NCBI RefSeq assembly: GCF_003334815.1
Contig: NZ_QOWO01000010.1
Direction: 5' to 3' (one strand)
From: Escherichia coli
Lineage (GTDB): Bacteria; Pseudomonadota; Gammaproteobacteria; Enterobacterales; Enterobacteriaceae
DNA: 64,000 nucleotides
The position numbers and the translations under genes were made by a program. Positions within the stretch are counted from its first letter, which is position 1. The number at the start of each line of letters is the position of its first letter. Below are positions 47,279 through 53,098 of this stretch, in pieces. Below the pieces are notes generated by a model. That model worked only from the letters and a program-made list of their open reading frames with translations. It did not search any database and was not told the DNA's origin.

Positions 47279-48499
47279 TTATCCCAGCAAACGGTGAATA
47301 CGTTGCAGGCCGGTCACCAGACGATCCACTTCTTCATGGGTGTTATACATGGCCAGCGACGCCCGACACATCGCAGGGACGTTGTAATAGGCCATCAATG
47401 GCATTGCACAGTGATGTCCGGTACGCACAGCAATGCCGTAATTATCGAGAAAACTGCCAACATCATAGGCGTGGTGTTTACCGAGATTAAAAGCAATAAC
47501 GCCAAGCCTGTTTTGTGGGCCATAGAGAGTGAGATCCGGTACAGATTCCAGCTGTGATAGCGCATAATGCATCAGATTCTGTTCATACTCGGCTATGTTA
47601 TTAAGCCCCAGCGCCGAAACATACTCCAGCGCCGCGCCAAGACCAATGATGCCCCCGGTATTGGGTGTACCGGCTTCAAACCGCCATGGTGCTTTGGTCC
47701 AGGTAGTGCCTTCACTCAGGCTGACGGTGGCGATCATAGAACCGCCCCCTTCCCACGGCGGCATCTCCTGCAACAAGGCTTCTTTCACATAAAGAATGCC
47801 AATTCCGGTGGGGCCATACAGTTTATGCCCGGAGAACACGTAAAAGTCGCAATCCAGCGCCTGAACATCCACCGGATGATGCATCACCGCCTGAGCGCCA
47901 TCCACCAGCACTTTTGCGCCATGCTGGTGCGCAAGCGTGATCATTTCCGCCAGTGGATTTTCTGTGCCAAGCACGTTGGAGACATGAGTAATTGCCAGCA
48001 GGCGAGTTTTCTCATCAAACAGCGTAGGCAGCGTCTCCAGTTGCAACGTACCATCGGGATTGAGCGGGATCACACGCAGCTCTGCGCCAACGCGTGCGCA
48101 AAGCATCTGCCAGGGAACAATGTTAGCGTGGTGCTCCATCTGACTGATGATGATGTTATCGCCCGCCCGCACGTTGCTGTTGCCCCAGCTATTGGCGACC
48201 AGATTGATCCCTTCCGTCGTGCCGCGGACGAACACCAGCTCTTCCGCCGAACGGGCATTAATAAACAGCGATGCCCGCTTGCGCACGTTCTCCATTTTCT
48301 CGGTCGCCTGGGCGCTTAAGGTATGAATACCACGATGCACCGCCGCGTAGCCATGACGATAAAACTCGGCCTCGGCGTCAATCACCTGGCTCGGTTTCTG
48401 CGCACTGGCGGCGCTGTCGAGATAAGCCAGCGGCAAACCGTTTACCTCACGCGAAAGCACCGGAAAGTCGGCCCGCACTTTGTCGACGGAAAAAATCAT
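47279..48499 (-). CDS. sufS: cysteine desulfurase SufS
   Basis: 406-aa PLP-dependent aminotransferase class V ORF recognised as SufS. Confidence 0.97.
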
Positions 48500-49767
48500 C
48501 TTGCACCTCCTGGCAGCCGTTGACCGATTCGGGCCAGCACCTGCTGTTTAAGCCCCTCATCACGCAGTGCTTCCGTCAGTTCGGCAGCGAAGGCGTAAAT
48601 GATCATCTGCTGGGCATCCTGCTGATTGATCCCGCGCGAGCGCAGATAGAATATCTGTTCATCATCAATACGCCCCACCGTCGCGCCGTGGCTGCATTTC
48701 ACATCATCTGCATAGATTTCCAGCTGCGGTTTCGTATCCACTTCCGCCAGTTTGCCCATCAGCAGATTGTTGTTGGTCATCTGACCATCCGTTTTGATGG
48801 CGTGCTGCGCGACGTTGATCAAACCGTTAAATACCGCGCGGCCTTTGTCGCTGACGATAGTTTTGTGCAACTGTCGGCTGTTACAAAAACCTTTATTGTG
48901 TTCCAGCCAGGTACGGGTATCACACACCTCGTTTTTCACCGGCATCGCCAGGCTATTGATCCGCAGCGTGCTGTTTTCGCCATTGAGTTGCGTACTGGTG
49001 TTGTGTCGTAACACTGCGCCACCCAGCAGGAAACTGTGGCTAAATGCGGTGGCATCCTCAGCCAGCAACAAATCGTTATGAGCAAAGTGGTGACTGAGCG
49101 GGTTTTCAAACGCCAGCTTGATATGCTGCAAGTGGGCATTCGCTGCGACGTTGATAGTGAACCGTGCCCCGGTAAAATGACGAGCATCATTCAGGCTGAC
49201 AAAATGTTCGATCACCGTTGCTTCGGCACCTTCCGCCAGATCCAGATGATGTCGGTAATGGGCAGTGTTCACCTCTTCACCTGCCACGCCCTGGGTGATA
49301 TGCATTAACAGCAATGGCTTTGCCGGCCGTTGACCGCGCTTCACGGCGATATGCGTCACGCTTTGTGCCAGGCTTTCCGTCAAATGCAGAAACACTTCCG
49401 CCTGAATAGCGTCGGGTAAACCCTGACGGTCGTCGTTAATGCTCACTTCATATCCGCTGCCTTCAGTTGCATCGCTCAGTGCGGGCACGTAACGCCCATC
49501 GACAAACACCAGCCGCACGGAGTCTAACGTTAACGCTAAGGCATCACGCTGCTGTGGGGATATCTCTCCCGCAATGCTGACAAACTGGCTATTGATCAGC
49601 CCTTCCAGCGGCGTATATTTCCAGTTTTCATGTTTACGTGTCGGCAGTCCGGTACGCAGCAATTGTTGTAAATGCTGCTGTGCTTGCGGGGAGCGTTTTG
49701 TCCCTTCAGCTTCAAACAAGTGATGCCACTGTTGCAGCGCGTTACTGCTGTTCGGTAAGCCAGCCAT
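48496..49767 (-). CDS. sufD: Fe-S cluster assembly protein SufD
   Basis: 423-aa ORF; 4-nt overlap with sufS. Confidence 0.95.
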
Positions 49768-50488
49768 AACCCTGCTCCTCCAGTTGTTTGACCAACGTGA
49801 AATCGCCGGATTTCACAATTCGTCCCTGATATAGCACATGAACGTAATCAGGCTTGATGTAGTCGAGAATGCGTTGGTAGTGCGTAACAATGATGAATGA
49901 GCGCTTGCCATCACGCAGCGAGTTCACGCCATCGGCGACCACTTTTAATGCGTCAATATCCAGCCCGGAGTCCGACTCATCAAGAATGCATAACTCCGGT
50001 TCCAGCACCGCCATTTGCAAAATATCGTTGCGCTTTTTCTCGCCGCCGGAAAAACCAACGTTTACCGAACGGGTTAATAAATCTTCCGGCATCTTCAGGA
50101 GAGCGATTTTCTCTTCCATCAAATCCTGAAAATCAAAGCGGTCGAGCGTTTCCTGGCCGCGATAGCTGCGCACCGCATTAAGTGCCGTTTGCAGGAAAAA
50201 CTGGTTACTGACACCTGGAATCTCCACCGGATACTGGAAGGCCATAAAGATGCCTTCGCCCGCGCGATCTTCCGGCGACAGCGCAAGCAAATCTTTGCCT
50301 TTGAACTCAACCGTGCCGCCCGTCACTTCATAATCTTCTCGCCCGGCAAGCGTTGCCGATAAGGTACTTTTGCCCGAACCGTTTGGCCCCATAATGGCGT
50401 GAACTTCGCCGGGATGAACGTCGAGGCTTAATCCGCGCAGGATAGCTTTATCTTCCACGCTGACGTGTAAATCTTTAATACTTAACAT
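49742..50488 (-). CDS. sufC: Fe-S cluster assembly ATPase SufC
   Basis: 248-aa ABC-type ATPase (Walker A GPNGSGKST); overlaps sufD by 26 nt. Confidence 0.97.
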   Translation of the reverse strand: MLSIKDLHVSVEDKAILRGLSLDVHPGEVHAIMGPNGSGKSTLSATLAGREDYEVTGGTVEFKGKDLLALSPEDRAGEGIFMAFQYPVEIPGVSNQFFLQTALNAVRSYRGQETLDRFDFQDLMEEKIALLKMPEDLLTRSVNVGFSGGEKKRNDILQMAVLEPELCILDESDSGLDIDALKVVADGVNSLRDGKRSFIIVTHYQRILDYIKPDYVHVLYQGRIVKSGDFTLVKQLEEQGYGWLTEQQ

Positions 50489-50497
50489 GTTTATTCC

Positions 50498-51985
50498 TTA
50501 TCCGACGCTGTGTTCAAGACTGATGGCGAGGAGTTTTTGTGCTTCAACGGCAAATTCCAACGGCAGCTCCGAGAATACGTCTTTGCAGAAACCGTTAACA
50601 ATCATCGAGATGGCGTCTTCTTCGCTGATCCCGCGTTGCAGGCAGTAAAACAGTTGATCTTCACCAATACGTGATGTCGTTGCCTCGTGTTCCAGTTGCG
50701 CACTATTGTTACGACACTCAACATACGGGAAGGTATGCGCCCCACAATTAGCGCCAATCAGCATTGAGTCGCACTGAGTGAAATTGCGCGCATTGGTTGC
50801 CGTCGGCATGATTTTCACTAAGCCGCGATAACTGTTCTGACTATGTCCGGCAGAGATCCCTTTCGAGATAATGGTCGATTTGGTGTTTTTACCGATGTGG
50901 ATCATCTTGGTGCCGGTATCCGCTTGCTGATGACCGCTGGTCAGCGCCACTGAGTAAAACTCACCAATGGAGTTATCGCCGCGCAAAATGCAGCTGGGAT
51001 ATTTCCACGTAATCGCTGACCCGGTTTCTGATTGCGTCCATGACATTTTGCTGTTTTCGCCTTCGCACAAAGCACGCTTGGTGACGAAGTTGAGAATACC
51101 GCCGGTGTTGTTATCGCCAGGAAACCAGTTTTGTACCGTGGAATATTTCACCTCGGCGTTTTTATGGATGATGACTTCCACCACTGCCGCGTGTAACTGA
51201 TAGCTGTCACGCACCGGAGCGGAACAGCCTTCAATGTAGCTGACGTAGCTGTCTTCGTCGGCCACCAGAATGGTGCGCTCAAACTGCCCGGTTTTTTCTG
51301 CGTTAATGCGAAAATAGGTGGAAAGTTCCATCGGGCAGCGCACGCCTTTAGGCACATAAATAAACGTACCGTCAGAGGCTACCGCCGCATTAAGCGCGGC
51401 AAAGAAGTTGTCATTCCCCGGCACCACGGTGCCGAGATATTTACGCACCAGTTCCGGGTGATCGTGGATCGCCTCACCAAAGGAACAGAAAATAATTCCC
51501 TGCTCCGCCAGTTTTTCGCGATAAGTAGTGGCAACCGAAACTGAGTCGAAAATGGCATCCACCGCCACCTCTTTGCCTTCCCGCACGGGAACGCCCAACT
51601 GCTCAAACGCCGCCTCCACCTCTTTACTTAAAAAGGCGTTCGCGCCAGTTTGCTGCACCGCGCCAGGTTCAGACGCGCAAGTGTCGTCACAATTACCGCA
51701 CGATGGTGCTGAGTAGTAGCTGTAATCCTGATAATTCAGCTTGTCGTAGTGCGCTTTCAACCAGTGCGGTTCTTCCATCTCCAGCCATGCGCGATAGGCG
51801 TTTAGACGAAACTCCAGCATCCACTCCGGCTCATTACGCTTCGCCGAAATTGCGCGCACCACCTCTTCGTTTATCCCCTTTGCCAGCTCATCGGTGGCTA
51901 ACTGGGTGAAGAATCCTTCTTTATAATTCAGCGGGCCGCCGGTCCAGGTTTTGACATCGTCAGTTGCTTCAGTATTACGAGACAT
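50498..51985 (-). CDS. sufB: Fe-S cluster scaffold SufB
   Basis: ORF containing [26 protein letters not shown]...; start set at ATG 51985 (495 aa). Confidence 0.95.
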
Positions 51986-51993
51986 AGTACCGC

Positions 51994-52362
51994 CTATACC
52001 CCAAAGCTTTCGCCACAGCCACATTCATTCTGGGCTTTAGGGTTGTGAAATTTGAATATCTGATTAAGTCCTTCACGAACGAAATCGACTTCCGTGCCAT
52101 CAATAAACGGCATCGCTTGCAGCGGGACAAACAGCTTCGCGCCGTCGTGTTCAAACAGCAGATCGTCTTTGTCCGGCTCGCTAACACTGTCGAGCACATA
52201 GCCAAAGCCCGCGCAGCCCGTTTGCTTCACGCCTAAGCGCACGCCGACCATACCCGGCTGCTTTGCCACCAGCTCACGGATGTGTATCGCCGCTGCGGGT
52301 GTCAGCGTTAAGCCTTGCCAGGCGAAATCTTGTGGGTTAAAGGTTCCTGAATGCATGTCCAT
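51994..52362 (-). CDS. sufA: Fe-S cluster A-type carrier SufA
   Basis: 122-aa ORF ending in the conserved ...CGCGESFGV motif. Confidence 0.95.
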
Positions 52363-52406
52363 CGATTTACCTCACTTCATCGCTTTCAGCGTATAACAGC
52401 ATGTTA

Positions 52407-52423
52407 GTGATAATGATTATCAG
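52407..52423. promoter_or_regulatory. Fur box in the sufA promoter
   Basis: gtgataatgattatcag matches the GATAATGATAATCATTATC Fur consensus about 45 bp upstream of sufA. Confidence 0.75.
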
Positions 52424-52688
52424 TTCAACCCAGCAAACGCAGGGGCTTTACCGTAAAACATGCTTTTTGCCTGCTTTTAATAAGCATAGACCCTGATGTG
52501 TGGGTTAACAGGCACGCTAAGAATTAGGTATCTCATTGTTAGATAATGGTTATTATCTAAGGAGCATTAAGGCTGTGATGAAAAAGAAAAAGTTGTATTG
52601 AAAATGACTATTTAAGAGATAGGTAAAAAAGTGCAGCGTTCAGAAATAAGAAAACCCTTAAGTCTGTGCGACACAGGCTTAAGGGTTT

Positions 52689-52756
52689 CTACCCCATCCG
52701 GCGCTTATCTCCGGCACTCTCAGTGGCTTAGCTCTTGAAGGGGCGATAAGAATAAT
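52689..52756 (-). ncRNA. rydB: probable RydB small RNA (boundaries approximate)
   Basis: sufA-ydiH intergenic location where RydB is reported; position taken from remembered reference coordinates. A strong minus-strand hairpin with U-rich tail lies immediately downstream at about 52635-52680, so the true 3-prime end is uncertain. Confidence 0.4.
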
Positions 52757-52909
52757 CTCATAAAGCTAACCCGCCGTTTTAACACAAACTGCGATTAGTA
52801 TTATTTTTGAACAATATCAGGCGGTAGATAAGCAGTATTAAGAAGGTCATCGAACCTGGACGGAGGTTAATCCAGGTCGATTTGGCGAACTTGCGGCATT
52901 AAGTCAGGA

Positions 52910-53098
52910 TCAATGCACGCCCAGACGCCAGGCAAAGTAGATTTCTTCTTTTAATTCAGCAGAAGAGAGAGTAAGCAGGTCAGCAAATTCAAGTTCTAGT
53001 TGTTTCAGACGTTTGAGATATTGGGCAGGTGAAAGATTGCTCTGGTCACGGCGTAAAAATTCAATGGCCAGCTGGGTGGGATCAAGTTGAGTAGACAT
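52910..53098 (-). CDS. ydiH: small uncharacterised protein
   Basis: 62-aa ORF MSTQLDPTQLAIEFLRRDQSNLSPAQYLKRLKQLELEF... from the internal ATG; upstream extension in the ORF track judged spurious. Confidence 0.75.
   Translation of the reverse strand: MSTQLDPTQLAIEFLRRDQSNLSPAQYLKRLKQLELEFADLLTLSSAELKEEIYFAWRLGVH

Follow-up and report, generated by a model that had tools for sequence, protein, structure and literature searches.

The sufABCDSE control region of Escherichia coli and an invariant upstream block without an assigned factor in the accessible literature

Positions 52363-52633 (minus strand) of the window, the whole 64-kb stretch of DNA that was analysed, are almost certainly the promoter-operator region of sufABCDSE, the Fe-S cluster assembly operon, in E. 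coli K-12. This control region is already well characterised and recognising it again brings nothing new. The comparative map built here, in which every element is given in window coordinates and the spacing is rigidly conserved across Enterobacteriaceae, exposes an invariant block to which the accessible literature assigns no factor. This block, placed at -100 to -84 with respect to the mapped transcription start site (TSS), is the only lead from the suf region worth a bench test. As a whole, the region represents textbook signal integration at one promoter, with iron (Fur), Fe-S demand (IscR), peroxide (OxyR and IHF), NO (NsrR) and growth phase (sigma-S) as its inputs. The original prediction had described a well-characterised and dense regulatory hub, in agreement with the Fur, IscR, OxyR and IHF inputs documented in PMC7229158, PMC8300815, PMC8593673 and PMC12594620. 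Factor binding and the regulatory logic are taken below from the literature; the elements, their statistics, their conservation and their spacing come from the present analysis.

The sequence at 52300-52950 is 100% identical to that of E. coli K-12 MG1655 and was found in 5,422 of 5,426 complete E. coli genomes. The matches occupied 5,431 places in total, two of them plasmid-borne; four of the 5,426 genomes gave no match, and two records were merely 80-90% identical. The open reading frames, together with the RefSeq annotation of the K-12 record that shows 100% identity, place the operon on the minus strand at 46850..52362, with sufA at 51994-52362, sufB at 50498-51985, sufC at 49742-50488, sufD at 48496-49767, sufS at 47279-48499 and sufE at 46850-47266. 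The neighbours in the same annotation are ldtE and lpp downstream and rydB, ydiH, menI and ydiJ upstream. All six Suf proteins exceeded the NCBIfam equivalog cut-offs, and SufA, B, C, D, S and E follow one another in the order, and within the one transcription unit, of an enterobacterial-type SUF operon, a single suf transcription unit starting at the TSS of promoter P1 having been reported by Cho et al. 2014. A weak internal TSS in sufA, at 52240 on the minus strand (U00096.2 1762288, 24 reads), was assigned in the same study to a sufBCDSE transcription unit. The pairing of RyhB inside sufB constitutes a further published regulatory layer (PMC12533949).

A closer inspection of the gene junctions (sufA/B +8, sufB/C +9, sufC/D -26, sufD/S -4 and sufS/E +12 nt) showed that the overlaps announced by the original prediction, 26 nt for sufC-sufD (49742-49767) and 4 nt for sufD-sufS (48496-48499), are both exact by the coordinates of the reading frames. 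Its description of the operon as packed with overlaps applies to these two of the five junctions but not to the other three (sufA/sufB, sufB/sufC and sufS/sufE), where the genes stand 8, 9 and 12 nt apart and a Shine-Dalgarno sequence is present each time. All 72 related loci extending as far as sufC/sufD retain the 26-nt overlap together with its ATG and the upstream GGAGGAG, which suggests that translational coupling between these genes may be under selection. At the other end of the control region, the rydB sRNA was recognised on the minus strand by an Rfam match at 52684-52744 (RF00118, 81.6 bits), with a stem-loop and U-run terminator on the same strand at ~52651-52689 that folds into a stem of 12+5 pairs and is followed by UUUUCUUAUUU. 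This terminator was missed by the terminator scan because the internal mismatches of the hairpin lie outside the stem and loop limits of the scan. The sRNA and its terminator (52651..52744) are the upstream boundary of the suf control region and insulate it against upstream transcription.

Since the consensus scans for OxyR, IHF and NsrR gave matches at or below chance, phylogenetic footprinting was used in their place. Loci of sufA were taken from 80 further species of Enterobacteriaceae, whose SufA is 77-98% identical (81 species with E. coli), and the 338 nt that precede the ATG were aligned. Discrete blocks, each at a fixed distance from the ATG, stood out in intergenic DNA that is for the most part unconserved; for the Fur, IscR, IHF and OxyR elements these distances are 61, 84, 180 and 260 nt, respectively, with narrow interquartile ranges. 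In Intestinirhabdus alba a GC-rich insertion of ~96 nt could be seen between the Fur box/-10 and the Shine-Dalgarno sequence of sufA. This insertion carries long terminal inverted repeats (GGCTGTGTCCCTTAACCG...CGGTTAGGGAACACAGCC), is MITE- or REP-like and interrupts the conserved -10 region. In this species the OxyR block does not align.

Transcription would begin, in the proposed mechanism, at A 52394 from a weak promoter (P1) with the -35 element TTGAAC, a 16-bp spacer, the -10 element TAACAT and a C at -13. This position is the main minus-strand TSS listed by Cho et al. 2014 (1762442; conditions E, S and G; 306 reads), the U00096.2 coordinate being the window coordinate + 1,710,048. The sequence given there upstream of 1762442 ends in ...CACTAACATGCTGTTA / ...CTGATAATCATTATCACTAACATGCTGTTA, which sets +1 at 52394, 32 nt before the ATG, in agreement with the numbering of the published Fur* mutation, -26ATA-24 (PMC12594620). 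A secondary TSS is listed on the same strand at G 52381 (1762429, 113 reads, conditions S and H; Cho 2014). The 32-nt 5' UTR of P1 (52363..52394, minus strand) contains the Shine-Dalgarno sequence GAGGT at 52369-52373 and showed no structure beyond chance (fold z = +0.55). The -10 element, assigned by its position with respect to the mapped TSS, is found at 52401-52406 (minus strand), with the C at -13 at 52407; its sequence CACTAACAT recurs ~48 nt upstream of the ATG in 80 of 81 species, compared with 6 of 81 shuffled controls, and its columns are ~100% identical. The -35 element, read from the sequence at 52423..52428 on the minus strand, matches the consensus at 4/6 positions. Across species the -35 score is best at the 16-bp spacer (mean 3.9/6), TTGAA being invariant and only the last base varying. 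A simple sigma-70 scan did not call P1, whose 8/12 matches are under its threshold, and its two calls in the window are at chance level (1.4 expected). That P1 is missed is as one would expect of a weak, activator-dependent promoter, in line with the 'nearly no expression' of PsufA reported in the absence of iscR (PMC7229158).

The entire spacer between the -35 and the -10 of P1 is taken up by the Fur operator, a perfect 7-1-7 TGATAAT-G-ATTATCA at 52408..52422 (-14 to -28), so that operator and core promoter overlap. The element sits inside the 17-mer gtgataatgattatcag at 52407-52423 (+ strand), 45-61 nt upstream of the ATG of sufA, which lies on the minus strand. Its sequence, TGATAATGATTATCA, has 0 mismatches to the 7-1-7 Fur motif TGATAATNATTATCA, a motif matched twice in the 64-kb window with up to 2 mismatches (0.15 matches expected). 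The agreement is 15/15 with the 7-1-7 unit TGATAATnATTATCA and 16/19 with the 19-bp consensus GATAATGATAATCATTATC, the latter at 52403-52421, which has the top score in the window and alone in the 64 kb comes within 3 mismatches of the 19-mer (0/100 shuffles gave such a match). With up to 1 mismatch, the 7-1-7 motif was present ~61 nt upstream of the ATG in 73 of 81 species and in 0 of 81 shuffled controls. The near-consensus Fur box that the original prediction had placed just upstream of sufA is thus present, as the best Fur match in the 64 kb. Repression of PsufA by Fur has been reported through delta-fur effects and iron dependence (PMC12594620, PMC7229158), and the Fur-site mutation of -26ATA-24 to TAT, which relieves Fur control (PMC12594620), falls at 52418-52420, inside the box. 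Fe2+-Fur on 52408-52422 would shut the promoter and keep the activator off. A second Fur-like 7-1-7 element (TGATATTTATTATCA, 42701-42715), with 1 mismatch to the motif and 5 mismatches to the 19-mer consensus, was found in the A/T-rich intergenic region between fumD (ydhZ) and ydhY, ~248 bp upstream of the ydhY start.

The Fur box adjoins the IscR type-2 site (AAAGCCCCTGCGTTTGCTGGGTTGAA, 52424..52449, minus strand), which spans -30 to -55 and overlaps the -35 element. The site has 0 mismatches to AWARCCCYTSnGTTTGMnGKKKTKWA, a consensus partly derived from the suf site itself. As this consensus was presumably built from three footprinted sites, with that of suf among them, the perfect match is weak evidence when taken alone. 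In the alignment of 81 species the centre varies and conservation is seen in the outer arms (AA.GCCCCTG / GGGTTGAA); the pattern of arms was found ~84 nt upstream of the ATG in 72 of 81 species, against 0 of 81 shuffled controls. A shorter IscR motif, AxxxCCxxAxxxxxxxTAxGGxxxT, was discarded; with up to 2 mismatches it gave no site-specific matches and did no better than shuffles. Apo-IscR is reported to activate PsufA (PMC12594620, PMC7229158). In response to a rising Fe-S demand or to falling iron, apo-IscR bound at 52424-52449, over the -35 element, would activate transcription.

Further upstream, the IHF site was placed at 52529..52549 (minus strand), with the core TAACAATGAGATA at 52529-52541 (-135 to -147) and a conserved A/T element, ATTATCT, on its upstream side. 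The E. coli core has 2 mismatches to the consensus WATCAANNNNTTR, and a consensus scan with up to 1 mismatch found no IHF match in the suf control region of E. coli; in the alignment, 45 of 81 species (1 of 81 shuffled controls) carry the perfect consensus in this place, 180 nt upstream of the ATG. The OxyR site was placed at 52597..52633 (minus strand), with the core CTAT-n7-ATAG-n7-CTAT at 52597-52622 (-203 to -228), in which CAAT is found in E. coli. With up to 1 mismatch this core was seen 260 nt upstream of the ATG in 69 of 81 species and in 0 of 81 shuffled controls. The OxyR consensus comprises four ATAG/CTAT-type elements with 10-bp phasing (ATAGnTnnnAnCTAT-n7-ATAGnTnnnAnCTAT), three of which are conserved. 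The E. coli site matches 13 of the 20 specified positions of the 37-bp consensus, a score shared by 10 other positions in the window. A scan of the window with the 37-mer and up to 3 mismatches gave no match. A candidate NsrR 11-mer, AACATGCTTTT, with 1 mismatch to AANATGCATTT, lies at 52457..52467 on the + strand. The scan that found it carries no weight, as it gave fewer matches in the window (3) than chance predicts (9.3), and the 11-mer is not conserved outside Escherichia in the 81-species alignment.

Of the motif scans proposed by the original prediction, those for Fur and IscR were far above background and that for OxyR was not; in the E. coli sequence by itself the OxyR, IHF and NsrR scans found no motif above background, the result that it had named as its refutation. 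Because of these scans, the positions of the OxyR, IHF and NsrR sites are placed on conservation together with second-hand literature, from which we infer their exact borders. ORE-I, ORE-II and ORE-III, the OxyR, IHF and IscR elements of PsufA, presumably have the coordinates -236/-197, -156/-127 and -56/-35, which agree with the conserved blocks. The coincidence of these blocks with ORE-III, -II and -I, and with the qualitative descriptions in PMC8300815 and PMC8593673, supports the interpretation first given to the region. Its IscR, OxyR and IHF sites are all conserved, but the OxyR site (52597-52633) lies almost wholly beyond 52600, where the region had been made to end.

A role in PsufA activation is described for IHF (PMC7229158, PMC8300815, PMC8593673) and for OxyR together with IHF (PMC7229158, PMC8300815, PMC8593673, PMC12594620), the OxyR site being far upstream and acting through IHF (PMC8593673). 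Regulatory roles at PsufA are also described in PMC10117729. Under H2O2 stress, oxidised OxyR bound ~220 bp upstream (52597-52633) would be brought to the promoter by the IHF-induced bend, which would be centred near -141 (52529-52541). NsrR would act as a further repressor of suf, as stated in PMC8593673, which cites Partridge 2009.

The growth-phase input is carried by sigma-S. The suf transcription unit of K-12 was assigned to sigma-S by Cho 2014, where the ChIP-chip region SigS_405 (1762407-1762744, window 52359-52696) covers the promoter and no SigD region does. In K-12 delta-rpoS, sufA is ~85-fold and sufB ~135-fold lower; the drop of suf without rpoS is 25- to 124-fold in O157:H7 EDL933 and 6- to 7-fold in Salmonella. 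In stationary phase, sigma-S would occupy the promoter region and suf expression would be almost entirely RpoS-dependent. The inputs named by the original prediction are found in the control region, but the minus strand was left unstated and its list lacked both NsrR and sigma-S, the latter a major documented input.

The invariant block, CAGGGTCTATGCTTATTAAAAGC, is located on the minus strand at 52472..52494 (-100 to -78) and can be written as CAGGGTCTATGCTTA(A/T)TAAAAG. Its most upstream part, CAGGGTCTATGCTTA, spans -100 to -84 (window ~52478-52494) and includes ~15 contiguous invariant bases. Allowing up to 1 mismatch, 81 of 81 species and 0 of 81 shuffled controls have the core GGTCTATGCTTA (52481-52492), which lies ~131 nt upstream of the ATG. 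Among these species the conservation of the block equals that of the Fur box and the P1 -10, and is above that of the IscR, IHF and OxyR sites. No published factor is given for the block in accessible descriptions of PsufA. A search of open-access full texts for promoter sequence strings returned no relevant paper and no printed copy of the block sequence, and a literature search for the names sufAp2 or P2 found none. A search of the window for further copies gave 6 matches at up to 2 mismatches where 3.4 are expected, which is uninformative. An exact copy of TCTATGCTTAA, which is both the sigma-S -10 consensus and the 11-mer that the suf block has in other genera, was seen at 61737-61747 on the minus strand, presumably within the ydiB coding region, and is probably due to chance.

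The block may be the operator of a sequence-specific DNA-binding protein new to suf, and not a promoter element, a reading whose chances are put a little short of even. A run of ~15 invariant bases that keeps a fixed distance from the ATG and has unconserved flanks is what a protein-binding site typically looks like. Candidates for the protein would be another factor resembling Rrf2, LysR or MntR proteins, or one of FliZ type, since FliZ binds non-promoter sequences that resemble sigma-S -10 elements (PMC3367168). On the opposite strand, ATAGACCCTG resembles by eye the left arm of an IscR type-2 site, AAAGCCCCTG. However, no clear dyad or direct repeat was recognised in the block, the partial upstream arm TTAACCC is unconserved across genera, and the sequence is printed in no paper found by the full-text search. 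FliZ, moreover, cannot account for the block in general, as Klebsiella oxytoca, which to our knowledge has no flagellar genes, retains it. By eye, the block was also compared with, and rejected as, a full NsrR site, an OxyR half-site, a marbox, PmrA, RcsAB and CpxR sites, Fis, FNR and sigma-54 elements and an opposite-strand promoter. As an IscR type-2 dimer site its arm spacing is too short and its upstream arm unconserved, and its resemblance to an MntR site (CTATGCTT vs CTATGTTT) is limited to a half-site. It is also conceivable, though rather unlikely, that the block is the extended -10 of a second sigma-S promoter (P2) or a non-productive docking site for E-sigma-S. The segment TCTATGCTTAT (52480-52490) agrees, with a C at -13, with the extended -10 consensus of sigma-S, KCTAYRCTTAA / TCTATACTTAA (PMC5650638, PMC3367168), and TCTATGCTTA(A/T) fits KCTAYRCTTAA at 10/11 positions in E. 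coli and at 11/11, in the same place, in the loci of 39 other species. The C at -13 is accompanied in the block by a C at -8, a T at -6 and an A/T-rich discriminator, the block occurs in 81/81 species, suf is among the most RpoS-dependent operons and the ChIP region (52359-52696) is centred upstream of P1. Yet such a match is not rare in itself, KCTAYRCTTAA with up to 1 mismatch occurring 7 times in the window where 5.7 are expected, and the invariance runs 5 nt (CAGGG) further upstream than a -10 element needs. A P2 of this kind, for which the same doubt holds, would start at ~52476, ~82 nt upstream of P1, and would have the IscR and Fur sites downstream of its start. The one dataset consulted, Cho 2014 (exponential, stationary, heat-shock and glutamine conditions), gives 52394 and 52381 and no TSS near 52476. 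No -35 is conserved across species at the corresponding place (mean 2.5/6 at a 17-bp spacer), and the C(-13) of P1 itself could account for the use of sigma-S. Beyond the DNA-binding protein and sigma-S, the remaining probability goes to structural or other roles of the block.

Two more readings concern A/T-rich sequence nearer to and farther from P1. That the Fur-like sequence is a functionless chance match has a negligible probability; the A/T-richness of intergenic DNA in general is all that speaks for it, while 0/100 shuffles gave any match, the box is kept across the 81 species compared and a published mutation within it relieves Fur control (PMC12594620). Farther upstream, an Escherichia-specific palindrome, TAGATAAT-GGTT-ATTATCTA (TAGATAATGGTTATTATCTA), could be seen in the sequence at 52540..52559. 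Its GATAAT forms the -10 of a predicted 'constitutive' promoter, ATCACA-16-GATAAT, at 52552-52579, called with 9/12 matches by the simple sigma-70 scan. The palindrome is very unlikely to be either a second Fur operator or the -10 of such an upstream sigma-70 promoter, in spite of its GATAAT and ATTATC half-sites, of the scan call and of the same hexamers being given for an RpoD-holoenzyme SELEX peak in the sufA-rydB spacer (PMC3946193). Its agreement with the Fur consensus is only 13/19 and its half-sites are spaced by 4 bp instead of 1. The distal arm and ATCACA are unconserved even within the relatives of Escherichia; conservation is limited to the promoter-proximal arm, which is explained as belonging to the A/T element of the IHF site. 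As a second Fur box the palindrome was discounted on account of its wrong spacing and its lack of conservation. As to the promoter, the scan makes 2 calls where 1.4 are expected and the table of Cho 2014 has no TSS there. The sufA-rydB spacer (~52363-52680) is bound in vitro by both RpoD and RpoH holoenzymes according to genomic SELEX papers.

If the block were a sigma-S element, as a conditional second promoter or as a docking site for E-sigma-S, a cis-element would be gained by a bacterial stress promoter that is among the most studied. Such an element would explain the ~100-fold RpoS dependence of suf in stationary phase and would be the cis-basis of the Isc to Suf switch in that phase, a switch that has been linked to aminoglycoside tolerance (PMC4014581, PMC8593673).

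The closest known system is PsufA of E. coli K-12 (ORE-I/OxyR, ORE-II/IHF, ORE-III/IscR and Fur), which is the same locus with 100% identical DNA and shares its TSS, its Fur box, its IscR site and the layout of IHF and OxyR farther upstream (PMC8300815, PMC7229158, PMC8593673). There is no difference between them, and the accessible descriptions contain neither the -100 to -84 block nor an element behind the sigma-S dependence. The dps promoter of E. coli is used by OxyR with sigma-70 in growth and by IHF with sigma-S in stationary phase, and OxyR binds there next to the -35. The two promoters share the trio of OxyR, IHF and sigma-S on an iron or oxidative-stress gene; in suf, unlike dps, OxyR is placed ~220 bp upstream and needs the IHF bend, and the Fur and IscR sites overlap. 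The FliZ operator that lies downstream of flhDC's promoter resembles a sigma-S -10 element without being a promoter (PMC3367168). A near-TCTATACTTAA sequence that is functional without a detectable transcript could also describe the suf block, which differs from the FliZ operator in lying upstream of a promoter, in being invariant across genera and in being kept in a genus believed to lack FliZ.
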